UHGV virus genome: UHGV-0482402
From: a virus
Reading direction: 5' to 3' (one strand)
DNA length: 13,693 bases
Below, piece by piece: positions 1,245-13,693 of this stretch. Numbering within the stretch: position 1 is the first letter of the stretch; each line of letters begins with the position of its first letter. The notes beneath the pieces were generated by a model. That model was not told the DNA's origin and made no database searches. It saw only the letters and a program-made list of their open reading frames with translations. Position numbers and translations under genes: made by a program.

Positions 1245-2558
1245 ATGGATAAAGTCAAATATCCAACAGGCGTCGAAAACCACGGCGGCACATTACGCAT
1301 CTGGTTTAATTTTAAAGGTAAACGTGTCAGGGAAAATCTTGGTGTCCCTGACACTGCCAAGAACAGGAAGATCGCCGGGGAACTGCGGACATCAGTATGT
1401 TTTGCCATCCGCACAGGAAGCTTTGATTATGCTGCACAGTTCCCTGACTCCCCCAACCTTCAGGCTTTTGGGGTAAGTAAAAAAGAAATTACGGTGAAGG
1501 AACTTGAAGAAAAGTGGCTGGATCTGAAACGAATGGAAATCTCTGCAAATGCATTCAATCGCTATGAATCCGTTGCAAGAACGATGGTTCCGAAAATTGG
1601 AGGCAGTAGACTGGTGTCATCGGTAACCAAAGAGGAATTGCTGTATATCAGGAAAGATTTGCTGACCGGGTATCAGAATTCAACGAAAAACAAAGCAGCA
1701 GCAAAAGGACGGAGCGTCGTTACTGTAAATTATTACATGACGACAATCGCTGGAATGTTTCAGTTTGCTGCAGATCACGGTTACTTAGAAGCAAATCCCT
1801 TCCAGGGAATTAAGCCTCTTAAAAGAGCCAGGGCAGAGCCAGATCCGCTAACTCGTGACGAATTTATTCGCCTGATAGATGCTTGCCGACATCAGCAGAC
1901 GAAAAACCTGTGGTCATTGGCTGTGTACACAGGAATGCGTCACGGTGAACTGGTCTCCCTGGCCTGGGAAGATATCGATCTGAAGGCAGGAACAATTACC
2001 ATCAGGCGCAATTATACGAAACTTGGTGAGTTCACTCTACCGAAAACTGAAGCAAGCACAAACAGGGTTGTGCACCTTATCCAGCCCGCTATCAGTGTCC
2101 TGAAAAATCAGGCTGAAATGACAAGACTGGGTAAGCAGTACAACATCAAGGTGCAACTACGTGAATATGGACGTTCAGTGAACCATGAATGTACTTTCGT
2201 GTTTAACCCTCAAGTGGTTAGAAAAAGCGAACAGGTAGGTTTTGTCTACAAAGTCGATTCTGTAGGTGACTCATGGGAAACAGCCATTAAGCGTGCAGGG
2301 ATCAGGCATCGAAAGGCATACCAGTCACGACACACTTATGCGTGCTGGTCATTATCTGCCGGAGCAAACCCAAGCTTCATTGCCAGCCAGATGGGCCATG
2401 CAAGTGCCCAGATGGTATTCAATGTATACGGAGCATGGATGACTGACAGCAATGCAGAACAGATCGCAATGCTGAATCAGAAGCTGACAGATTATGTCCC
2501 AATGATGCCCCATAGTCACCAAAGTGACACCAGAGGCTTATTAAAATCAGTAAGTTAA
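1245..2558 (+). CDS. int: tyrosine site-specific integrase (lambda Int family, with N-terminal arm-binding domain)
   Basis: 437 aa. The N-terminus (YPTGVENHGGTLRIWFNFKGKRVRENLG) looks like an arm-type DNA-binding domain. The C-terminus has the catalytic signature region ...RHRKAYQSRHTYACW...HASAQMVFNVYGAW (R, H-x-x-R and a C-terminal Tyr). GGAGGT lies 4 nt before the ATG. Confidence 0.9.
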   Translation: MDKVKYPTGVENHGGTLRIWFNFKGKRVRENLGVPDTAKNRKIAGELRTSVCFAIRTGSFDYAAQFPDSPNLQAFGVSKKEITVKELEEKWLDLKRMEISANAFNRYESVARTMVPKIGGSRLVSSVTKEELLYIRKDLLTGYQNSTKNKAAAKGRSVVTVNYYMTTIAGMFQFAADHGYLEANPFQGIKPLKRARAEPDPLTRDEFIRLIDACRHQQTKNLWSLAVYTGMRHGELVSLAWEDIDLKAGTITIRRNYTKLGEFTLPKTEASTNRVVHLIQPAISVLKNQAEMTRLGKQYNIKVQLREYGRSVNHECTFVFNPQVVRKSEQVGFVYKVDSVGDSWETAIKRAGIRHRKAYQSRHTYACWSLSAGANPSFIASQMGHASAQMVFNVYGAWMTDSNAEQIAMLNQKLTDYVPMMPHSHQSDTRGLLKSVS

Positions 2559-2783: not shown

Positions 2784-2835
2784 TTGACACTGTTTATCCA
2801 TACAGTTAAAAATAATACTGTATACAAACACAGTG
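2784..2835 (+). promoter_or_regulatory. dinI promoter with two tandem LexA (SOS) boxes
   Basis: Consensus -35 TTGACA at 2784-2789. LexA-type CTGT-N8-ACAG boxes at 2790-2805 (CTGTTTATCCATACAG) and 2818-2833 (CTGTATACAAACACAG). An A/T-rich -10 candidate lies at 2807-2816. The Shine-Dalgarno AGAGGGA is at 2836-2842 and the dinI ATG at 2849. Confidence 0.6.
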
Positions 2836-2848
2836 TAGAGGGACTTTT

Positions 2849-3097
2849 ATGCGTATTGAGATCTGCATAGCCAAAGAAAAAATGACTAAAATGCCAACCG
2901 GTGCTGTGGATGCGTTAAAGGAAGAATTAACTCGGCGCATCAGTAAGCGTTATGACGATGTAGAAGTGATCGTAAAAGCCACCAGCAATGATGGGCTTTC
3001 TGTTACACGCACAGCAGATAAGGATTCTGCAAAAACATTTGTTCAGGAGACTCTGAAAGATACCTGGGAGTCTGCTGACGAGTGGTTTGTTCACTAA
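2849..3097 (+). CDS. dinI: DinI-family protein (RecA co-protease modulator)
   Basis: The 82-aa translation [37 protein letters not shown]...[16 protein letters not shown] aligns along its length with E. coli DinI as recalled (MRIEVTIAK...ETWESADDWFVSE). LexA boxes lie upstream. Confidence 0.85.
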
Positions 3098-3165
3098 TAA
3101 ACACGTAAAATCGGTAACGGCTGGAAATCATTCAATACTCGCACTATCGAAAGTTAACCAGCCAA

Positions 3166-3203
3166 CCGCAGTATCCTGTCATGACAAGTTACTGCGGCTT
3201 TTT
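3166..3203 (+). terminator. rho-independent terminator downstream of dinI
   Basis: Inverted repeat CCGCAGTA (3166-3173) and TACTGCGG (3190-3197), followed by CTTTTTACTTTTT. Confidence 0.45.
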
Positions 3204-3214
3204 ACTTTTTATAT

Positions 3215-3502
3215 TTAACGGATCAACATCCAGATCAGCAGACACGCCACCACCGGCACAGCAAAATCCATCAGGCTTGCCACATCCCACGCGCGTGGAT
3301 CAAAACCGCCCCACCACGGCATGTTAATCCGCTTGCCATGCCCGAACATTTCAATCCAGCGATATTCTGCCTGGGTGTGTTCCCGCGCAATGAAGAACGT
3401 ACAACCGGCTATCGCACCGTAAGCCCAGTTTCCGGTAAAAAGACCACCCAGTACCTGTGCGACCACAGCGCAAAGTGCGTGATGAATTGGGGTTTTATCC
3501 AT
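3215..3502 (-). CDS. small integral membrane protein (95 aa), translationally coupled to the tailspike gene; function unknown
   Basis: ATG at 3502-3500 directly abuts the tailspike stop (minus strand reads TAG-ATG). Hydrophobic segments are AVVAQVLGGLFTGNWAYGAIAGCTFFIA and LMDFAVPVVACLLIWMLI. It sits where P22 and Sf6 carry O-antigen conversion genes, between tailspike and att. Confidence 0.6.
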   Translation of the reverse strand: MDKTPIHHALCAVVAQVLGGLFTGNWAYGAIAGCTFFIAREHTQAEYRWIEMFGHGKRINMPWWGGFDPRAWDVASLMDFAVPVVACLLIWMLIR

Positions 3503-6088
3503 CTACTCTATCTCTTTTGCTTTTTTAATTATCAATTCAAGCTCTGTTAAACGAGATTCAATACGTTCACACCTTCTTCGCTGGAATGCAGCCTCCAACC
3601 ACAAACATTCATCTGGACGCAATCCCCAACGCTCACCAGCATGTACAACCAGTTCCGTGTCACCAGTATCGTATTCTTCAAAGTATTCGTGAACGATGTC
3701 TTCTCCTTCAGGGGATTTAGCTATAAATGACACCTTGCGCTGTGCCATTACAGGTTGGTACTCATCATCCCATTTATCATGACATAGCAAGCCAAATCTT
3801 GTTCCATCTATCCCCTTTGCAAGAAACGCATCTCTTACCTGCTGTGCAATTGCTCCGAAATGCCAACGAGCAGTATCCGAACCTTTAGCCTTAATATCGG
3901 ACAACCACTGGTAAACGATAATATTTACGTCACCCCATGCGTCAAGAATTGCATCCTGATCCACCTCCATGATTTCTGAAAGTTGCTCTACTGTCAGTGG
4001 CTTTGTTTTCAATGTCTGGTCTGAAGTATTTATTGCCCCATTAGTTGCATATACTTGCGTCCACCGTTTAGATGATGTCCCACATGATGACGTATTATCT
4101 TTATTAGCACTTATATAGCCATTAACCTCCGCTGACTGACCGATATACGAATATGAAGATGTTGATAAGGGAGATTTAAATATCCATTGAGCATTGGTAA
4201 AGTCATAAATACCGGTATCACCTTTTTCACTAACATGAAAAGTTACATTCCGTAACGTATTCTTTGCATCATAACGGGCGGCTTGTGTTGTTGCCCTCGA
4301 AACAGTGAATCCTTTGTCATCAAGGTTTGCCTGCTCTATGACTTCACCACCAGGCATAATTTTACCAAGGCTTAACAAACCAGAGTTAGTGACAATATCA
4401 TGGGTTGAATCAATGATAATACCAGGCTGATTTCTTGATGTTGTTTTTACATGCATTACCTGTTGTGGCATTAATGTGTAAAATGTAGTTTCTCGCCCAC
4501 TATCACCATCTGGTATGCCATTTGTATTCCCCATTACAAGGTCATACCCACCTGCAATCATACGGAAAAACATTGCTTCTGGTTCATATGTAAGATTGCT
4601 AACATCTGGCGTTCCGGTATCATTTGGATCTGCTATTTCATAGGCTCTTCCTGCACCTGCCTGTATTTGCTGCACCCCAAGATAAACACCATCAAGTGTG
4701 TACTGATGCAAATATTTTCTGGTTGAAGAATATGCAGATCCAGCCTGACAAAAATAAATAGCAGTACCGTCACACGCAACTGTTTGCATATCCCTCACAA
4801 AATCGGCAATTTCAAATTCAAAAGTTGCTTCATTACGATAATCGTAATTGTACGCCTGCGGGTTAATAAATTTGCTGGTATCAAATACTTTTACATAATA
4901 GCGAATTTGATCTGGTGTTGATGGGCTCTCACCAGGGCCAACATAACGTTTTGCTGTAGTAATCAGCCATCGACTCATAGGGTCGGTGCATAAAACATTT
5001 ACCTGATTCTCGTAACCATCTTCCCATATGAGAAAAAACTCTGGTTCAATTTCACCACCATCAGTAGGGGTGAATCTGGTGATATACTTTGCGCGATCCT
5101 CTCCTTTAGCTGTGCCAGCTAACCCCCATATCTGTAACTGGCCTCTTGTGTTACGAAAACCAACGCGCCCTATGGTTAAACCAAGACATTGATGTCCTAA
5201 TTCTCTACTACCTTTAGTCTCCCAAAGAGGAGTTAACTCTTCATTCCCAAACCAATTATAAGCAACAACTTTATTAACTTCATCACCAGAACTAACGCTG
5301 CCACTCACATTTACCAAGCAATAAAGAACACTGTCATAATAATCAAGAACAGCACCCTGTATGACAGTATTTTTAATTGTTGCCAGTCGCAACCCTGACT
5401 TAACATGATTAGGAGTAGAAGGTCTGAAACCTGTATACATCCCCTTTTTTATAGTTTGTATTCTTTTTTCAGTAAAATCAGCATCTGGCAGTAATCGATT
5501 CTCTGTGCGAAAATAGCCATTTATATACTTATTTCCATCAAAAACTTGATCTGTTATATATGTATTACCCCTTAGATCAACAATCCTTCCTGTGATTTGT
5601 TTTTCTAACTCTTGAAAAGATAATGTGTCATCGGTGATGCCATCACCTTTTGCTCCCCATCCGCGAGGGTCAGCGTCATCACGCCACCGAGACATCTGCA
5701 ATTCATGATATTTTTTAGCACCTTCCGGGTCTTCTAATTGTTGTCTTAATTGGTCTGGATCGTACTTAAGCACATTCGGAAAATAGAACTGCTGCGTACC
5801 ATATGCATCGTAAACAGCCATAGAATGGCCTTGCACGGTAACGAATTTGGAAATCTGTCCGTTGTATACCGGGTATCCAGCAGCATTGATAACGATTGGC
5901 TGTGGCACCTGAACATAAGTACCATCTTCTCGTTCCAGATATACTGGAATCTGGTTTTCTGGATTTACCGGATCTGTGTCAATCTTACCGATATAAATTT
6001 TTCCATTTGCTACGGTTTTAAAAGAGCTAGCCATTGTGAAGAGTTGCGATGGCATACCTATCACAACATTTGGGGTTATATCAGGCAT
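3503..6088 (-). CDS. tailspike protein: P22 gp9-type head-binding domain, central pectate-lyase-type beta-helix (putative polysaccharide depolymerase) and C-terminal S74-type intramolecular chaperone
   Basis: The N-terminus [50 protein letters not shown]...[13 protein letters not shown]...NVLKYDPDQ matches the recalled P22 tailspike N-terminus (MTDITANVVV...[27 protein letters not shown]...[13 protein letters not shown]...NVLKYDPDQ). [13 protein letters not shown] beta-helix signature follows. The C-terminal roughly 173 aa begin at NTSDQTLK (Ser codon at 4022-4024) and end in a coiled coil. The start is placed at the ATG at 6088 (AGGA 8 nt upstream), not at the track start 6181. Confidence 0.9.
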
Positions 6089-6430
6089 ATTAGTCATCCT
6101 GTTTGAAGATTTAGATATTGAAGAAAACGGAATGACTGCAGACAACGATGCAATTGTTTTGAAAAATAACCTTCTATTCATTTAAAAACCATGCAACATG
6201 AACAAAACGATTATTTTACAATACTCAAGAATCTTGATCAACAGGCATATTATTTATGCGCTTAATGCGTCACTTACAAAAATAAAAACAAGTAATACCT
6301 TTATTCCTATCGTCCATGATTTTTATTTTCAAACATTATTAAATAACAATTCCTATTTATAATATCTGTCATTTAATTTGCTCCAGATACAAGTAATCGC
6401 TGCAGCGTGGCTACGGTGAATTTTGGGCAT

Positions 6431-6453
6431 AAAAAAACCCAGCCGAAGCTGGG
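6431..6453 (-). terminator. rho-independent terminator downstream of ant (between ant and tailspike)
   Basis: On the minus strand the hairpin CCCAGC-TTCG-GCTGGG is followed by a run of seven T (plus strand AAAAAAACCCAGCCGAAGCTGGG). P22 has a terminator at the equivalent position after ant. Confidence 0.6.
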
Positions 6454-6472
6454 TCGTTGCGTTGGTTATCTA

Positions 6473-7375
6473 TCAGTAGTTATGTACTGAAGGAGGTAAT
6501 TCTTTATTCTTAAGTCTCATCCATGCGGAAAGATTCGTTGGTCCATCTGGCTCATTGATATCAACATCTCGTGTGTGATTGATTAAAACGTCTCTCGCCA
6601 TTCCAATAACATACGAGAACTCATGACCGTAGTCGTAGCATCTGCCGGAATAGTTAGACTGAATTTGTTTTAGCGCCGGATACAGTTCGCGGAATAATGC
6701 CTGTGAGCGGTTGGCATAATCCCATAACCATACAAGGCTGTTTGCTTCTTTTGCAGAAAGCTCGTTGGTTTTCTTCTCTTGTTTGCCGATGAATTCGCCT
6801 TCAAGCACTACCCTGTGGATGTACTCTACGGCTTGCGGTATCTGAGACGCATCAAGCTCTTCAATACTTTCCACATTGAAACGCTGATGAATCATTGCAT
6901 AAGCTTCTGGGTACATTAGATGCTTTTTGCTGACCAGCATATTTACAGCATCACGAAGCGGAGTCCTGTCATCAACAGATGTTTTCTTACGTGCATTTTC
7001 TGCCTCTCCCTTTGTCCAGTAGTCATGCAGCACAGTAAAGCATTCTTCCTGGTACTGAATCAGTTTATCGCGGATGTCAGCACGAACTTTCTCAGGGTTG
7101 ATGCTGAACAGCCATCCATTTAACTTCTTCAAAGGAAGGCAGAGTAGCTTACGAAGCTTACCATCAGCGGCAACCATGTTCATATGAACACAGTTGAATT
7201 TGCTAATCTGCTTCATGAGTTTTGTTTGCTGCGTTGACCAGCTCATTCCAAGGTTTTCAACGATTGGCTTCATCGCAACATATGCAACTCCGGCAGCCAT
7301 GGCGGTGATAATTTGCTGACCGTTGAATGGTACGTAAGAGGTGTTCACTGCTTCTAAAATTGCTATACTATTCAT
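6473..7375 (-). CDS. ant: antirepressor Ant
   Basis: 300 aa from the ATG at 7375 ([29 protein letters not shown]...). GGAG lies upstream. It is immediately downstream of an Arc-like RHH gene and upstream of the tailspike, the same order as P22 arc-ant-gene 9. The track start at 7441 is a TTG that overlaps arc. Confidence 0.8.
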
Positions 7376-7447
7376 GTTGGTTTTTCTCCACGGATTTACT
7401 GACAACCGAAGCCCTGACTGTTCCCGCAGTTGGGGCTTCAACTTTTT
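7376..7447 (+). ncRNA. candidate sar-like antisense RNA covering the ant ribosome-binding site
   Basis: A plus-strand -10-like TATACT at 7364-7369 sits inside the first ant codons. A plus-strand intrinsic terminator follows: stem GAAGCCC (7408-7414) and GGGCTTC (7433-7439) with an inner ACTG/CAGT pairing, then AACTTTTT. The roughly 70-nt product would be antisense to the ant Shine-Dalgarno and start codon, like P22 sar. Confidence 0.4.
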
Positions 7448-7578
7448 AGGCTGCGAATAAGACGCTGCACTATTTCTGAATTTAAAGACCTGCCCTCCTC
7501 CTTAGCCTTTTCCTTCAATTTTTCTTTAATCTCTGGCGGGATACGAATCCCTAATGGAGCGATGTCTCTAACTTTCAT
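7438..7578 (-). CDS. arc: Arc-like ribbon-helix-helix repressor (46 aa)
   Basis: Minus-strand ORF missing from the track: [46 protein letters not shown]. It has the RHH signature (N-terminal beta-strand, then G-R-S-hNSEI) and lies directly upstream of ant. The Shine-Dalgarno is TGAGGGG. Confidence 0.7.
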
Positions 7579-7591
7579 TTCCCCTCACTTG

Positions 7592-7677
7592 CTACACCGT
7601 GATAACTAAATACTACACCGTGTTTATTTAAAGTCAAAATTTTTTTGCCTACACTGTGTAGCTATGCACAGCGTGCA
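7592..7677. promoter_or_regulatory. divergent immI control region with operator-like repeats
   Basis: CTACACCGTG occurs at 7592-7601 and again at 7613-7622. A perfect 13-bp palindrome CTACACTGTGTAG sits at 7649-7661 and a second, TGCACAGCGTGCA, at 7665-7677. All lie between the divergent arc (minus) and RHH-1 (plus) start codons. Confidence 0.45.
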
Positions 7678-7686
7678 GGAGGAGAA

Positions 7687-7926
7687 ATGAAAGGTGCAAG
7701 AGATATCAGTCCATTGGGGATTAGGATTCCAGACTATTTAAAGAAACGCATTCAGCAAGAAGCGGATAAAAACGGCAGATCAATGAACTCAGAGATCGTG
7801 CTTATCCTTCAAAAACATGTTGATAATCTTGATGGCTCTCGCTCACTTGAAGGATTCGCTAACCAAGAAGCTGATAAATTCAAAGAGGCGCTACTTGAGA
7901 CGCTAAAGACCATGTATGGTAAATAA
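7687..7926 (+). CDS. ribbon-helix-helix repressor, Mnt-like architecture (RHH plus C-terminal helical oligomerisation tail), paralogue 1
   Basis: ATG at 7687 follows GGAGGAG. Translation is MKGARDISPLGIRIPDYLKKRIQQEADKNGRSMNSEIVLILQKH...EADKFKEALLETLKTMYGK. The N-terminal strand (RDISPLGIRIP) is nearly identical to that of the divergent Arc-like protein ([11 protein letters not shown]). Confidence 0.7.
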   Translation: MKGARDISPLGIRIPDYLKKRIQQEADKNGRSMNSEIVLILQKHVDNLDGSRSLEGFANQEADKFKEALLETLKTMYGK

Positions 7927-7943
7927 TTATTCAGGATGTGCCG

Positions 7944-8201
7944 ATGTCTGATCGTAAGTACAAAAACCCTCAAGTGAATCTGAGGCTTCCTGTAGAGATA
8001 AAGGAACGTCTTATTGAACTGGCTGAGGCTAATTCTCGTTCATTAAATGCTGAGATGGTCGCGGCACTTGAAGCGTGGACAGAAAAAAATAAACACATTC
8101 AAGCACTAGACCTTGCAACTATAGCATCACGATTGATAGATCTTGAACATGATGTTGAGAAGTTGAAATGCATGTATAGCAACAATAAAGACGAAAGTTA
8201 G
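7944..8201 (+). CDS. ribbon-helix-helix repressor with Arc-type N-terminal strand and a C-terminal coiled-coil extension, paralogue 2
   Basis: ATG at 7944 is 7 nt after AGGA. Translation is MSDRKYKNPQVNLRLPVEIKERLIELAEANSRSLNAEMVAALEAW..., and its N-terminus resembles recalled P22 Arc (..PQFNLRWPREV..). Confidence 0.65.
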   Translation: MSDRKYKNPQVNLRLPVEIKERLIELAEANSRSLNAEMVAALEAWTEKNKHIQALDLATIASRLIDLEHDVEKLKCMYSNNKDES

Positions 8202-8224
8202 AGATACTAACTTGGAGTGATGGC

Positions 8225-8479
8225 ATGGCTAGAGACGATCCGCACTTTAACTTCCGTATGCCTTTGGAAGTAAGAGAAAAATTGAAATTAAGAGCAGAGG
8301 CTAACGGAAGGTCAATGAACTCAGAGTTATTACAAATCGTTCAGGATGCGCTATCAAAACCATCACCGATTGCAGGCTATCGCGACGATGCTGAACGCTT
8401 GGCTGATCAGCAAGCAGAGCAGTTCAAGGCCGTTGTGTTTGAGACACTTAAAAAGATTTATGGCAAGGATGAAAAATAA
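8225..8479 (+). CDS. mnt: Mnt repressor orthologue (ribbon-helix-helix)
   Basis: MARDDPHFNFRMPLEVREKLKLRAEANGRSMNSELLQIVQDALSKPSP... is near-identical over the N-terminal half to recalled P22 Mnt (MARDDPHFNFRMPMEVREKLKFRAEANGRSMNSELLQIVQDALSKPSP...). GGAG lies 7 nt upstream. Confidence 0.85.
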   Translation: MARDDPHFNFRMPLEVREKLKLRAEANGRSMNSELLQIVQDALSKPSPIAGYRDDAERLADQQAEQFKAVVFETLKKIYGKDEK

Positions 8480-9015
8480 TGCTGCACACAATTCATTTCT
8501 TATGCCCCGTTAACACTGCCACTGTTGGGCAACTTCAGAACCACTGTCTCACCGCATTATCTCAAGGCGCAACTGAATTAAATATCCATATATCAAGTCA
8601 GGGAGGGGAAACTGCCGCTGGCTTTACTGCGTATAACTTTCTTAAGTCACTCCCTGTTACCGTTAGAACTCACAACATAAGCAATGTTGAATCCATAGCT
8701 AATATCGTTTTCCTGGCTGGCTCAGAACGTTTCGCAAACCCATTATCAAGATTCCTGTTACATCCTCTATTATGGTGCTTTGCCTCCCCAGCCGCCGACC
8801 ATGCCAGATTGAGAGAGTACGGGAAATGCCTCGATAACGATCTTGATCGCTTCGTTGAGACGTTCAATATCGACATCGGAACCCATATTAGGTGGGCATC
8901 CCTGATAGCAGACTCGACCATTTTGGATGCTAACAAGGCTCTTGAGCATGGCATAATTAATTCCATAAAAACTGCAAGGCTGGTATCCAATCAGGCAAAC
9001 TGGTGGGTTGTTTGA
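8479..9015 (+). CDS. ClpP-like serine peptidase (ClpP/crotonase fold), translationally coupled to mnt
   Basis: Its ATG overlaps the mnt stop (TAATG). LNIHISSQGGETAAGFTAYNF...NVESIANIVFLAGSERFANPLSRFLLHP lines up with recalled E. coli ClpP ([21 protein letters not shown]...[32 protein letters not shown]). Candidate triad residues are the Ser in ESIAN, the His in LLHP and a downstream Asp in IADSTILD. Confidence 0.65.
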   Translation: MLHTIHFLCPVNTATVGQLQNHCLTALSQGATELNIHISSQGGETAAGFTAYNFLKSLPVTVRTHNISNVESIANIVFLAGSERFANPLSRFLLHPLLWCFASPAADHARLREYGKCLDNDLDRFVETFNIDIGTHIRWASLIADSTILDANKALEHGIINSIKTARLVSNQANWWVV

Positions 9016-9788: not shown

Positions 9789-9810
9789 AGCCGGTTCACT
9801 CCGGCTTTTT
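9789..9810 (+). terminator. rho-independent terminator downstream of the YjzC-like gene (overlaps the last codons of the convergent HExxH gene)
   Basis: AGCCGG-TTCACT-CCGGCT followed by TTTT. Confidence 0.45.
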
Positions 9811-10161
9811 GATATGTCGTTCGCAGAACTCAACAAGCCTGCTCATTAAGTAGCAGTAAGTCTCGTTGGCTCTTCCTGGTTCAACATCAACACCGACCCT
9901 TGAGCAGATATCGAATGCCATGTGAGCGCACTCATGGGCAATAGTAGATAGTTTGCCATTGAACACGCCTATCACATGCAAAACACCATTCTCGCTGCTC
10001 ATTGTATGAGACGCTCCGTTGGCATCCGAGTCCTGCACGTCCACACCAAGTTTTTGATGCAGGCGTTGCCATTCTGGAAAGTCTCTACAAAACACAATTG
10101 TACCGCTCTCAAAGAGCGGTACGAGCATCTTTGGTACGTTTCCAATGTTAACTTTTTTCAT
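9796..10161 (-). CDS. minimal HExxH zinc-metallopeptidase-like protein (121 aa)
   Basis: HECAH motif within ...KLSTIAHECAHMAFDICSRVGVDVEPGRANETY..., with downstream Glu candidates for a third zinc ligand. AGGA lies 4-5 nt before the ATG at 10161. No transmembrane segment is evident. Confidence 0.55.
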   Translation of the reverse strand: MKKVNIGNVPKMLVPLFESGTIVFCRDFPEWQRLHQKLGVDVQDSDANGASHTMSSENGVLHVIGVFNGKLSTIAHECAHMAFDICSRVGVDVEPGRANETYCYLMSRLVEFCERHIKKPE

Positions 10162-10191
10162 GGTATCCTGCTCAAAACTAAGGAGGTTGGT

Positions 10192-10614
10192 GTGTTTGGC
10201 ATATTAACGAGAAGCAAGATAAAAAAATTAAGGGCGGAACTTGCCGAAACACAAAAATTAGCTTCACATTTTTACAAAATGAAACACGACGCTGAAGAGC
10301 GTGCATTCGTTGAGTTATGCGACCTATCTATTCGTATGGGGGTAGAGCCAGATGTAGCGGCAAAAACTCAAGAAGGCGTTAATATACTTGCAGATGTTGT
10401 TTTAAACAGACAATATGCGTTTTATCTAAACGAAAAAGCCATTCAAATTTACTCGCAAATTTTCCTCTTGGAAAAAAGGAGAGGAACTCGCGATAGAGAA
10501 GAGTGGCTAAATGAAGTTGTTAAAAAATCTGGCTGGGAAGTTGTTTCATCAGAGCTACCTTTTATTTGTGCTGATTTAATCGAAGAGGCAAAAGAGCGCC
10601 TATCCGATGGTTAG
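10192..10614 (+). CDS. hypothetical 140-aa protein, divergent from the HExxH gene
   Basis: Track ORF 9976-10614 trimmed to the GTG at 10192, which is 5 nt after a strong AAGGAGG (10180-10186); the earlier part overlaps the HExxH gene. The protein is a charged, helix-rich sequence with no family I recognise. Confidence 0.45.
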   Translation: MFGILTRSKIKKLRAELAETQKLASHFYKMKHDAEERAFVELCDLSIRMGVEPDVAAKTQEGVNILADVVLNRQYAFYLNEKAIQIYSQIFLLEKRRGTRDREEWLNEVVKKSGWEVVSSELPFICADLIEEAKERLSDG

Positions 10615-10646: not shown

Positions 10647-10712
10647 ATGGTAACAGTTGGTTGGATTATCGCGTTCCTTATTGCATTTTGGGTTGGTCGT
10701 CACTGGCTGTAG
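10647..10712 (+). CDS. possible 21-aa hydrophobic micro-protein downstream of the 140-aa gene
   Basis: ATG at 10647 is 6 nt after GGAG. Translation is MVTVGWIIAFLIAFWVGRHWL. It overlaps the 3' end of the convergent gp16-like gene, so it may be fortuitous. Confidence 0.2.
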   Translation: MVTVGWIIAFLIAFWVGRHWL

Positions 10713-12834
10713 TATCTTGCTGAGATAACCATGTGATAAACCCCGTGCGAGAAATGGTTTTTGCTTCATCTGTTGACAGGGTTTTCTCCCATATCTTAAA
10801 TGCATTAGATCGCATCAGCTTCCTTTCTATTACGCGTCTCACTTCTGCTCTGTCTACTGGTGCGTTTTGCAGGCGAAATAGCATTAATTTAAACTCAGGA
10901 GAAGACAGTAGAGCATCAGCAGCCTTTATCCTGCTTGTTTTCCCTGACATCAATGCAGCCGATATTACCCCTGAAGCACCTGCTCCCAAAAGGCCAAATG
11001 AGCTTGTAATTCCTTCCGCCGCAGCAGCTTTTGAGACTATTCCATAAATTTTTGCGAGACTACCCTTTTCTTTCAGAAAGTTATTAACTTGCTGATCCAC
11101 AAGGCTACTAGCATACTGCTTACCAGTATTGAGTCTATTCATAGCCTTAGCTGCTTGATAAATCGTATCAAGGCGCTTTGATGCATCTGTGCCAATAGCA
11201 TCACGGAGAGCCTTCATATTGGCCCCATTGCGTGACATTCCGTTATACCATTTTACAAATCCATCAACTCCTAATTGCTGACCAGGTGATTTGGCATAGC
11301 TGGTAAATGCTTTATTCATTGAGGTGAGCGCAACTTCCTGCCGCATATCCTTTGGAATTGACTTCATTAATTGCCTAAAGTCACCACCGTTTCCTTTTGC
11401 CATATTAACAACGGCACTTTCAACTTTTGGAATTGCTGATTGCTGAAGTTTTCTACCCAAGACGGTTACAGCATCATCTTCAATGGATTTTCGTTTTTTT
11501 ACCAACTCCTTACCAAGCGTCCATAATTCCCCTGCACCATATTTTTCTGCGACAGCCTGTTGGTCATCTGTTATGGCTGCATATAACTTTTTAAGAACAC
11601 CTGTTTCTTCATCCTTGAATGGGCCAGAGCCTTTGCCAATAGCTTGTCCAACCTGCTTTCTAGCGAGATCTAAACGCCCATACGTTGGCAAGGTGTTTGG
11701 ATCAAGTCGGTTCAATGTCCGCTTCATTATTGGAGATAATTCATCAATTCCACCTATGTCATCAGCAAAATCCTCTAAAAAATTCAATGTATTAGTTGCC
11801 TCAATCCGGTCTCTTACAGGTACCTTTTCGGCAATTTTGTTGTAGATGTTATCTGACTGATTTTGTAATGATGAAATGGTTTTATCAAAATTATCTGCAA
11901 GCCTGTCAGAAACCAGTTGCTTATCAAGGTTTCCCCCAAATGAAGTTATCATTTCATCAGCTTTTCTTCCTAATTCAGTAATAAAACGCTTATGCGCCTC
12001 ACTAATCTCTGTTCCAGGGAGACTTGCCACTGCATTATCAAGAGCCCTGACAGCAGGATTATTAGAGATCATGCCTGGAGTGGCATAATTTTCCAGTTCT
12101 AGCTCACGAATAGCATTTATCGCGTTAAAATCAGGATTAACTTCATCGGCGAAATCTTGAATAGCTCGTTGCCCACCAATAAATTTATTATCCATTGCGC
12201 CAGCAGCTTTCTTTAACGTTGCTTTAGATGATTTACTACCCATCCCTACGGATGAGCGATAAATATCTCCGGCACTATTTTTAATTTTTCCTGCAATCTT
12301 CCCAAGCGCTGGACCAACAATCTCGGCTACAGGGCCAGCCACAGCGCCAATAGCAGCGCCGGAAGCAACATCGCTATTTGTTCCATTGGCTACAATAGCC
12401 CCTTCTCCAGCACCAAGCCCTGCGGCGGCAGCCAGCCTTGCCGCCCCTTTCGGAACCTGAGAAATAATCCCACCACCACTAACAAATGGTGCTGCTTGTC
12501 CAACGAACTCACCAACATCTTGTGCGGTTGATGGTTTTGCCGCTAACTTCTGCTGTAGAGACTGAATTGCGGCTTGCTCTTCTGGTGTCATGTCCTGAAA
12601 CAGGCCAACACCTTTACCAACATCCATCAATCCACTGAGAACGCCATACATAAAACGGTCGAAACCGTTAGCATTATTAACAACATTTTCCTGTCTGGAA
12701 TTTTCCTCTGGTGAAACCAAAGGAGATTGCTGCTGTTCTGGTTGGGAATCAAGCACAAAGCCATCAGGAAGCTGTGAGTTATCAGGCTGATTATCGAGAA
12801 CAAAGCCTTCGGGTAAACCTACATCGGTTGCCAT
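10678..12834 (-). CDS. virion ejection/injection protein (P22 gp16-like by position)
   Basis: 718 aa with Gly/Ala-rich segments (AAAGLGAGEGAIVANG..., GAAIGAVAGPVAEIVGPALG). Its start overlaps the upstream gene's 3' end by 16 nt. It lies directly upstream of the immI region, as in the P22 order 20-16-sieA-mnt. Confidence 0.65.
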   Translation of the reverse strand: MATDVGLPEGFVLDNQPDNSQLPDGFVLDSQPEQQQSPLVSPEENSRQENVVNNANGFDRFMYGVLSGLMDVGKGVGLFQDMTPEEQAAIQSLQQKLAAKPSTAQDVGEFVGQAAPFVSGGGIISQVPKGAARLAAAAGLGAGEGAIVANGTNSDVASGAAIGAVAGPVAEIVGPALGKIAGKIKNSAGDIYRSSVGMGSKSSKATLKKAAGAMDNKFIGGQRAIQDFADEVNPDFNAINAIRELELENYATPGMISNNPAVRALDNAVASLPGTEISEAHKRFITELGRKADEMITSFGGNLDKQLVSDRLADNFDKTISSLQNQSDNIYNKIAEKVPVRDRIEATNTLNFLEDFADDIGGIDELSPIMKRTLNRLDPNTLPTYGRLDLARKQVGQAIGKGSGPFKDEETGVLKKLYAAITDDQQAVAEKYGAGELWTLGKELVKKRKSIEDDAVTVLGRKLQQSAIPKVESAVVNMAKGNGGDFRQLMKSIPKDMRQEVALTSMNKAFTSYAKSPGQQLGVDGFVKWYNGMSRNGANMKALRDAIGTDASKRLDTIYQAAKAMNRLNTGKQYASSLVDQQVNNFLKEKGSLAKIYGIVSKAAAAEGITSSFGLLGAGASGVISAALMSGKTSRIKAADALLSSPEFKLMLFRLQNAPVDRAEVRRVIERKLMRSNAFKIWEKTLSTDEAKTISRTGFITWLSQQDTTASDDQPKMQ

Positions 12835-13693
12835 TGTCCGTTCCTATAAATGAGTTTCTGACCAGTTTTAGGGTTCGTTGCCGTCGCGCCTTCTGATATC
12901 CCACTTGGCGCAGCTTTTGTCTGCCCATTACCACCTTGTGGTGTAGGCTGCGCTGGGACATCGTCAAATAGCTTGGCCTTCCTTCTCCCTAAACTTTTTT
13001 TCAGCCCCTGAGGAATAGTATCTCCATACGTATCCAGATATTCGTCTACCTGCTGGTTAAACTGCTGCCCCATAGCGTTGGCGTTAATTTTTGCTGCGTT
13101 GACAATGTTATCCCTCGCTTCCTGTGACAAGCCATTCCCTGCATTAAGCTGGTCTACATATCCTTTTATCTGCCCCCATATGCCATCAGAGCGCATGACC
13201 TGAACCTGTTCACCTTCGCGAACAACTGACTGAGGGTCGAGAGACTTCATGTAATTAAAGATAATCCCAAGTTGGGCAGCGCCAGTATTTACCTTGCTAA
13301 GGGCTTGCAGAGAGTTTGCCGCCGCTCTGACAGAGTTATAATTTTTGCCAAAATTGGTAATGTCAGAATTTAATCCCTTAATTAAGTCTGCTGACGGCTT
13401 ACCTTTTTGCCCCAGCTCCATTAGCTTCAATCCCATCTCATCTGAGTGCATTTGTGCCCGCTGAGCCCTGTCTAGTTGAGCGTTCTGGATATTTGCCCAT
13501 CCTCTCGCATTCTCCATGTCAGCCTGACGGATGCTTTCATCCAATCGCCCTTGCTCAAGTCGACGCCCCTCCATTTGATCTTTGATATCGAAATACTTCT
13601 CATGGCCGAGAGAAAATAGTGCCAGATTACCTGCAAAGTGCTGGAAGCCCTGCGGGTCATTAACCTGCATTTCAGCAATAGTTTCTGGAGGGA
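12819..13693 (-). CDS. virion ejection protein (P22 gp20-like by position), C-terminal part; 5' end outside the window
   Basis: The minus-strand frame stays open to the window edge at 13693, so the track start at 13670 is not the true start. The Gln/Asn-rich helical sequence ends in ...KLIYRNGQWQPM. Confidence 0.6.
   Translation of the reverse strand, partial: PPETIAEMQVNDPQGFQHFAGNLALFSLGHEKYFDIKDQMEGRRLEQGRLDESIRQADMENARGWANIQNAQLDRAQRAQMHSDEMGLKLMELGQKGKPSADLIKGLNSDITNFGKNYNSVRAAANSLQALSKVNTGAAQLGIIFNYMKSLDPQSVVREGEQVQVMRSDGIWGQIKGYVDQLNAGNGLSQEARDNIVNAAKINANAMGQQFNQQVDEYLDTYGDTIPQGLKKSLGRRKAKLFDDVPAQPTPQGGNGQTKAAPSGISEGATATNPKTGQKLIYRNGQWQPM

Follow-up and report, generated by a model that had tools for sequence, protein, structure and literature searches.

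An antirepressor is the means by which an incoming phage breaks the immunity of a resident prophage, and the secondary immunity conferred by Mnt is the resident's counter-measure. To our knowledge, this form of immunity has been studied essentially in phage P22 only, with one repressor and one operator. P22 immunity requires two regions, immC and immI, and the Mnt protein of the prophage represses the antirepressor gene (ant) of an incoming homologous phage (Susskind and Botstein, as cited in PMC8022706 and PMC2629481). Here we describe the immI region of UHGV-0482402, a P22-like (Lederbergvirus-like) Escherichia coli phage, of which a stretch of 13,693 nucleotides (hereafter the window) was analysed. 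P22 has a single mnt, whereas this region carries three tandem mnt-family genes that encode ribbon-helix-helix (RHH) proteins, named RHH1, RHH2 and RHH3 in the order of the genes. Only the first appears to have its operators in place. The other two are orphans that may silence the antirepressors of rival immI types in trans, a proposal to which we give an even chance of being right.

The region in question, also called the 'ant moron', is highly variable, and ten types were distinguished in sixteen genomes (PMC2629481). In phage CUS-3, two genes were annotated as mnt and arc was reported absent (King et al., 2007, CP000711; Villafane et al., 2008, PMC2629481). Phages L and ST64T carry an orphan mnt without ant or arc, and its authors left open whether it has 'another function' or is a remnant (PMC8022706). 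Like these phages, the window holds Mnt-family repressors without a cognate ant promoter in cis. Unlike those of L and ST64T, its orphans lie behind a complete immI module, and the types they represent often serve as primary modules in this host species. In the literature searched, no paper was found on repressor stacking, on the three-gene stack or on the rule, set out below, that the operator follows the first gene.

Repressors and operators of the immI region

Its gene content places the region among P22-type immI modules. It contains a P22_AR antirepressor gene, the sar antisense RNA, a co-oriented Arc-family gene and a divergent Mnt-family gene. The kinds of gene and their orientation are those of P22 immI, and so is their place in the genome, with ejection-protein genes on one side and a tailspike gene on the other, both recognised by PHROG matches. 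The phage has Lederbergvirus relatives. The best single deposited phage covers at most 29% of the window, and the ant DNA is nearest to that of epsilon34 (~96% identity). The initial annotation had placed four RHH regulators around ant in lieu of the P22 mnt/arc pair. This observation is confirmed at the coordinates of Table 1, since all four open reading frames (ORFs) exceed the gathering cut-off of the Pfam Arc family (PF03869, 20.4 bits; scores of 49.1, 32.9, 40.1 and 95.8 bits) and match Arc or Mnt structures. The arc-like protein matches Arc structures in PDB, and 1mnt is the best PDB match of both RHH1 (4.6e-5) and RHH2 (1.7e-5). Another PDB entry, 9pio, titled 'Arc family DNA-binding protein', was met in a paper on degradation by ClpXP. 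The likely start codons of the latter two are ATG 7687 and ATG 7944, and identical proteins are so annotated in RefSeq/CUS-3.

The arc-like protein and RHH1, whose reading strand is RDISPLGIRIP, are 57% identical over 35 residues (E=1e-14). This likeness is also seen in the DNA, where inverted repeats (7538-7569/7699-7730 and 7572-7586/7679-7693) cover the ribosome-binding site (RBS) and N-terminal coding DNA of both genes and flank the operators. In these two proteins, referred to as type A, a proline occupies the position of His6 in Mnt; the His6-to-Pro substitution is a classical altered-specificity mutant of Mnt. The tail of RHH1 is Mnt-like: BLASTP aligns RHH1 with RHH3 (E=5e-17) through the motif ETLKxxYGK, and the two tails (QEADKFKEALLETLKTMYGK and QQAEQFKAVVFETLKKIYGK) are similar. 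Both traits of RHH1, the reading strand held in common with the arc-like protein and the Mnt-like tail, had been pointed out in the initial annotation and are borne out here, as is the Arc-type strand of RHH2 (PQVNLRLP, compared with PQFNLRWP of P22 Arc). The long C-terminal part of RHH2, also remarked on earlier, appears in an AlphaFold model (mean confidence score, pLDDT, of 77) as a single helix at residues 57-83, behind the RHH helices 17-29 and 34-48. The strand YK(N/H)PQVNLRLP is invariant among 25 aligned RHH2 homologues, and the family comprises more than 140 clusters in Enterobacterales. Residues 1-13 of RHH3 are those of P22 Mnt, including R2, H6, N8 and R10 of the reading strand, and its tetramerisation domain is recognised, with matches to Repressor_Mnt (PF11423, 3.4e-12) and to PDB entries 1mnt (1.7e-38) and 1qey (1.1e-5). 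Judged by these matches, RHH3 is the P22 Mnt orthologue that it had been taken for.

Going by the predicted reading strands, there are three specificity classes: class A, which comprises the short arc-like protein and the long RHH1, and classes B and P22-Mnt, each represented by a long form only, RHH2 and RHH3 respectively. An earlier suggestion of two classes, each with a short and a long form, thus gives way to three, and the short arc partners of the B and P22-Mnt classes are absent from the window.

The 108-bp intergenic region between the arc-like gene and RHH1 (7579-7686) contains CTACACNGTG three times, at 7592, at 7613 (21 bp from the first) and within a perfect palindrome; strand-matches in the whole window number five, against 0.06 expected. 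These CTACAC-N-GTG repeats are the putative type-A operators O1 to O3 (collectively O_A) and stand where P22 immI has Omnt and Oarc. The B-type control region (O_B), which consists of GGTACGCAT...GATAGTCAATAGATACCTAC and contains GGTACGYAT repeats and GATAGTCAATAGATACC, was not found in the immI region of the window, which leaves RHH2 without a cognate operator there. A single GGTACGCAT at 671-679 lies inside coding sequence and is consistent with chance. Nor does RHH3 have a cognate operator in the window, as no match to Omnt (AGGTCCACCGTGGACCT) was found with up to 3 mismatches in 17 positions or up to 2 in the 12 specified core bases. P22 Oarc was likewise not found in the window at up to 3 mismatches. 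A full cis circuit can be predicted for type A alone, made up of the arc-like gene, three CTACAC-N-GTG operators and RHH1.

In this circuit, leftward transcription from the predicted promoter Pant would proceed through the arc-like gene and then ant, with the sar antisense RNA between them, and the three operators would cover or flank the promoter. RHH1, a long and presumably Mnt-like tetramer made by the prophage, would hold ant off in the lysogen, and the short arc-like protein would shut down Pant after infection via the RHH1 operators. P22 Arc and Mnt read different operators, whereas the arc-like and first mnt-like proteins of the window have one reading strand in common. The three RHH genes probably form one operon, because they are separated by gaps of 17 and 23 nt, their RBSs are intact and a consensus scan found no (+)-strand promoter or terminator inside the array. 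A terminator-like hairpin with a T-run lies on the (-) strand within RHH2 (7968-7985), oriented toward late, arc and ant transcription, and could attenuate read-through into ant and the tailspike gene.

Distribution and origin of the stacked genes

Using three proteins as queries, 240 IMG/VR loci were fetched (the best 80 matches per query) and their RHH ORFs identified with a hidden Markov model; removal of duplicates left 173 distinct clusters. In every cluster the operator type of the divergent intergenic region is that of the first mnt-like gene, and in none of the 173 was the operator of a distal gene found. P22 operators go with PHFNFRMP as the first gene in 53 clusters, GGTACGYAT with PQVNLRLP in ~66 clusters (with four different arc strands), and CTACACNGTG with SPLGIRIP in 12. 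The multi-layer cis circuit that the initial annotation had envisaged therefore lacks support from operator content, the immI operators of the window being of type A only. The RHH2 type is the sole mnt-like gene beside arc-like and ant genes in Klebsiella, Morganella and Salmonella; across these genera the intergenic TGTATGTGGTACGCATACATAGTAT.TAGGTACGCATTGATAGTCAATAGATACCTAC hardly varies, although the RHH2-type proteins are only 61-76% identical. The RHH3 type is the stand-alone Mnt of P22 and epsilon34, and a protein identical to the arc-like gene product of the window adjoins ant in loci L029-L038.

At least two tandem long RHH genes are present in ~17 clusters (10% of the 173). Their distal genes have strands of five types (P22-Mnt, APYSVRMP, APFGLRMP, PQINIRVS and PQVNLRLP), and the PQINIR and PQVNLRLP types occur as the first gene in other clusters. 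The exact three-gene stack was found in at least six E. coli assemblies with differing tailspikes and in one IMG/VR contig, and at a coverage of at least 80% in none of 5426 RefSeq complete genomes. Species-dereplicated genomes hold further, independent stacks. Xenorhabdus sp. TCT-1 combines a type-A-like arc and mnt, with CTACAC sites, and a distal RHH2-type gene, and has no B-type operator. The Xenorhabdus type-A-like module with CTACAC sites is locus L293. Xenorhabdus yunnanensis has another primary module followed by the same kind of distal RHH2-type gene, and Arsenophonus has a B-type primary module followed by a distal gene of a different type. The two Xenorhabdus species, represented by loci L291 and L293 (2245-2734), agree in the distal RHH2-type gene and in the C-terminal half of their first mnt gene. 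Their arc genes, their operators and the N-terminal halves of that first gene are different, which amounts to a domain-level swap of DNA-binding specificity within a mnt gene.

Some irregular loci were also encountered. A convergent 'mnt then arc' layout in seven clusters proved to be an artefact of long upstream ORF extension, the clusters being ordinary P22-type modules with ClpP cargo. In two IMG/VR loci (L068 2215-2477 and L195 471-720) a frameshift or sequencing error divides the RHH2-type gene into two ORFs; the distal P22-type mnt behind the split gene of L068 is intact. Some CUS-3-type loci (L008, L012, L013 and L016, 3555-3758) carry an extra 67-residue ORF without a Pfam match between arc and ant, where the window has only the sar region.

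The distal orphan repressors are without exception intact and show purifying selection. The P22-type mnt is intact and retains its reading strand in all 17 distinct distal contexts (14 alleles), and none of the 16 NCBI loci inspected has a disrupted distal gene. The extra RHH ORFs of the window, for which decay into pseudogenes had been considered, are intact as well; in L034 and L036 the third gene had been called at 54 residues, an artefact of gene calling, and its ORF is complete in both. Synonymous and nonsynonymous differences stand at 34:14 in distal P22-type genes and at 90:31 in primary copies, with a pairwise dN/dS ratio (omega) of 0.03-0.07. Two distal RHH2-type copies from Xenorhabdus offer a cleaner test of constraint than the P22-type alleles: synonymous divergence (dS) is 0.60, nonsynonymous divergence (dN) 0.12 and omega 0.19, with an invariant reading strand. 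A whole-genome operator scan was made of CUS-3, which has a distal P22-type mnt like that of the window. Nothing like Omnt was found in its 40.2-kb genome, and all of its O_B sites fall within immI. The distal Mnt of CUS-3 is thus without a target in its own phage.

Sequence identities indicate that the region was pieced together from three immI types, those of PhiR12/MS 196-1, CUS-3 and P22. A mosaic had been suspected in the initial annotation, correctly so, but of two immI regions rather than three. The block of arc-like gene, operators and RHH1 is 95-100% identical to PhiR12_1 and to a prophage of E. coli MS 196-1. In these relatives, too, the ClpP-like cargo gene comes next. They have one mnt gene (an RHH1/3 hybrid) or two (RHH1 and an RHH2/1/3 hybrid) and a lambda-like tail cluster, whereas the window has three unfused genes and a P22-like late region. 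In L003 (PhiR12_1, 3042-5054) and L004 (MS 196-1, 3047-5327), the ant-arc-mnt-clpP module lies between the lambda-like tail genes K and L, a placement which implies that the module moves between short-tailed P22-like and long-tailed lambda-like phages. The DNA of RHH2 and RHH3 is 97.8% identical to the two mnt-annotated genes of CUS-3/UTI89, 5' leaders included. RHH3 retains the leader and RBS of P22 mnt and RHH2 the CUS-3 leader, with junctions just 5' of each RBS. In CUS-3 the RHH2-type gene stands beside B-type operators and the arc is the phage's own (strand KVKTLRMP), whereas the window has the type-A unit in that place. Since this unit replaced the CUS-3-type arc and operators, RHH2 became a second orphan in the window.

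All three RHH genes contain a conserved 28-nt 3' segment. The second mnt gene of MS 196-1 is a hybrid with the body of RHH2, an RHH1-type 3' segment and a KDEK tail, the mnt of PhiR12_1 is RHH1 fused to the KDEK tail, and in both hybrids the switch of parent falls inside the 28-nt segment. Such hybrids and the retained leaders show that the array expands and contracts by recombination at conserved gene ends, the crossover sites being the 28-nt 3' segment and the short 5' leaders. The stack arose by modular recombination, in which the left part of an older immI gave way to an incoming arc-operator-mnt unit and the older mnt gene or genes were kept.

Possible roles of the orphan repressors

The proposal of immunity in trans follows from the bipartite immunity of P22 (PMC2629481, PMC8022706, PMC11016777). 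RHH2 and RHH3 would act on superinfecting or co-resident phages with a B-type or P22-type immI, so that their antirepressor stays off, and the secondary immunity of the lysogen would span three immI types rather than one. Phages of the two target types are common in E. coli, where, of 5426 complete genomes, 173 have control regions of P22 type, at least 111 of type B and 19 of type A. In a broader form, to which we give slightly less than an even chance, Mnt orphans of foreign specificity would be a heritable, modular and multi-specific shield, present in about a tenth of Enterobacterales immI modules, with cassettes gained and lost at the 3'/5' junctions. RHH2, which has the Q/N/R reading residues of Arc, might in addition cross-repress the Oarc of P22-type phages, in which case such a phage, on entry, would find both its operators closed, by RHH2 and RHH3 jointly.

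RHH2 and RHH3 could instead be leftovers of recombination, passengers that are transcribed without a selected function and are intact through recency or recombinational refresh. On this reading, which we regard as unlikely, they were retained because the arc-operator-mnt unit of type A, like that of type B before it, came in by a crossover 5' of the old mnt. Several features of the locus and its relatives speak for it. The nested order A-B-P22, compared with B-P22 in CUS-3, fits stepwise replacement from the promoter side. The junctions fall in short common leaders and in the 28-nt repeat, deletion derivatives fuse or lose distal genes (the MS 196-1 hybrid and PhiR12_1), and the three-gene stacks of E. 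coli are mutually 99% identical and therefore young. Identical P22-type mnt alleles sit in primary and distal positions, so that the signal of purifying selection may partly predate the orphan state. As this signal may have accrued in the primary position, intact distal copies could be recent leftovers. None of the 53 P22-type primary modules is followed by distal genes, which fits a one-directional history of replacement without selection. These last points count against the trans proposal, as do two others: the putative operator assignments rest on co-occurrence, and a cognate site elsewhere in this phage is possible, because the operator search covers 13.7 kb of its genome. Against passengers speak the lack of any disruption among the 17 distal P22-type contexts and the 16 NCBI loci, and constraint that is not relaxed relative to primary copies. 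Further evidence comes from two Xenorhabdus species, whose primary modules differ and which have both kept a distal RHH2-type gene, with the omega and invariant strand given above, and from the occurrence of at least five distal types in several genera.

That RHH2 and RHH3 exert multi-layer control in cis, on their own ant and mnt promoters, through the CTACAC-N-GTG operators, unrecognised sites or mixed tetramers with RHH1, seems to us quite improbable. The C-terminal tails of RHH1 and RHH3 are alike, the three genes lie in one apparent operon, and the type-A operator and Omnt have a central CAC-N-GTG in common, on account of which weak cross-binding of RHH3 in cis is possible and is a further point against the trans proposal. 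However, Omnt and O_A differ at 4 of the 12 specified core positions, the window has no Omnt core site within two mismatches, and no hybrid half-sites were seen in O1-O3. Moreover, type-A modules work with RHH1 alone (PhiR12_1 and six to seven IMG/VR clusters), and in B-type modules the RHH2 type suffices by itself, their intergenic sequence being the same with or without a distal Mnt. A literature search on quantitative Mnt operator specificity, as it bears on cross-binding to CTACAC-N-GTG, yielded nothing usable.

The initial annotation had also raised the question of whether the extra genes are antitoxins, here of type II toxin-antitoxin systems, and the probability of this is close to nil. 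Weak sub-threshold matches to RelB-like antitoxin and FitA-like RHH models are in keeping with it, and UTI89/CUS-3 has a YafO-family toxin gene two genes 3' of the mnt pair. Yet the antitoxin-model scores lie far below the cut-offs, the window has no adjacent toxin gene (the next gene is ClpP-like), and no toxin match was obtained from PADLOC, which returned nothing, Pfam or NCBIfam. The families are divergent from arc-ant in more than 150 loci in which the downstream cargo varies freely, and RHH3 is P22 Mnt itself. We consider the antitoxin reading effectively refuted.

Neighbouring genes and wider meaning

Table 1. Features of the window, in order of position.
Feature	Position	Strand	Basis and remarks
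Integrase gene	1245-2558		beside dinI-like gene
Tailspike gene	3503-6181	-	PHROG match
Terminator-like hairpin 3' of ant	6436-6455	-	consensus scan; position of the annotated epsilon34 terminator
ant, antirepressor, 300 aa from ATG 7375	6473-7375	-	Pfam P22_AR_N 4e-45, P22_AR_C 5.8e-30
sar antisense RNA	7376-7443	+	Rfam RF00262, 95.6 bits against gathering score 43, full length 1-68
sar terminator hairpin	7408-7439		found in hairpin scan
arc-like gene, type A, 46 aa	7438-7578	-	Pfam Arc 5.2e-13; PDB Arc structures matched
Putative operator O1, CTACACCGTGATA	7592-7604		downstream of Pant -10; kept in all type-A loci
Predicted Pant-like sigma-70 promoter	7610-7637	-	-35 TTGACT 7637-7632, -10 TAGTAT 7615-7610; consensus scan, 9/12 matches
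Putative operator O2, CTACACCGTGTTT	7613-7625		overlaps Pant -10; 21 bp from O1
Putative operator O3, CTACACTGTGTAG	7649-7661		perfect palindrome; mnt side
Weaker palindrome, GCACAGCGTGC	7666-7676		
RHH1, type-A Mnt-like repressor, 79 aa	7687-7926	+	Pfam Arc; best PDB match 1mnt; Mnt-like tail
Conserved 28-nt 3' segment, repeat family D1	7895-7922, 8155-8182, 8439-8466	+	encodes ETLKxMYGK; in all three RHH genes
RHH2, type-B (CUS-3 type) Mnt-like repressor, 85 aa	7944-8201	+	97.8% DNA identity to CUS-3
RHH3, P22-type Mnt, 84 aa	8225-8479	+	1mnt E=1.7e-38; PF11423
ClpP-like cargo gene, 178 aa, last in mnt operon	8479-9015	+	Pfam CLP_protease 2.2e-11
Ejection-protein genes (DNA transfer)	10678-13670	-	PHROG matches

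The start of the ClpP-like gene overlaps the stop codon of RHH3 (TAATG). Its product scores below the NCBIfam cut-offs for head-maturation proteases and has no PADLOC match. In other phages the same gene stands behind mnt genes of four or more specificity types (L001, L003, L004 and L044). The genes 3' of the last mnt vary and include GmrSD with HEPN, Rap1a-like, YafO-family toxin, SieA and SocA_Panacea genes (L021 3266-5136, L025 3261-3623, L006 4636-5055, L010 5714-6208 and L012 4970-5413). Defence and cargo genes seem to have a hotspot in and around the mnt operon, which the prophage expresses.

Elsewhere in the window, a dinI-like gene (2849-3097; phrog_189, 5.7e-31) is preceded by a LexA-box-like sequence, CTGTATACAAACACAG (region 2819-3097), which suggests an SOS-controlled moron beside the integrase gene. 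The fifth match to CTACACNGTG (2829-2838) is part of this LexA box and was rejected as an operator, being a chance occurrence. Two long ORFs overlap on opposite strands, 9796-10161(-), which matches phrog_1365, and 9976-10614(+), which has no match; it is likely that only one of them is real.

If prophages do stack repressors against foreign immI types, immI would be an arena of conflict between phages and not merely a private switch, and the specificities carried by a prophage would record which rivals it has met. It would help to predict induction and cross-immunity in E. coli prophages, among them the K1-capsule and Stx-associated lambdoid phages whose ant modules are related. The RHH proteins of the locus and its relatives would also form a natural series for studies of DNA recognition by beta-sheets, in which each reading strand is paired with its own operator (P22 Mnt with Omnt, RHH2 with the GGTACGCAT region and type A with CTACAC-N-GTG).

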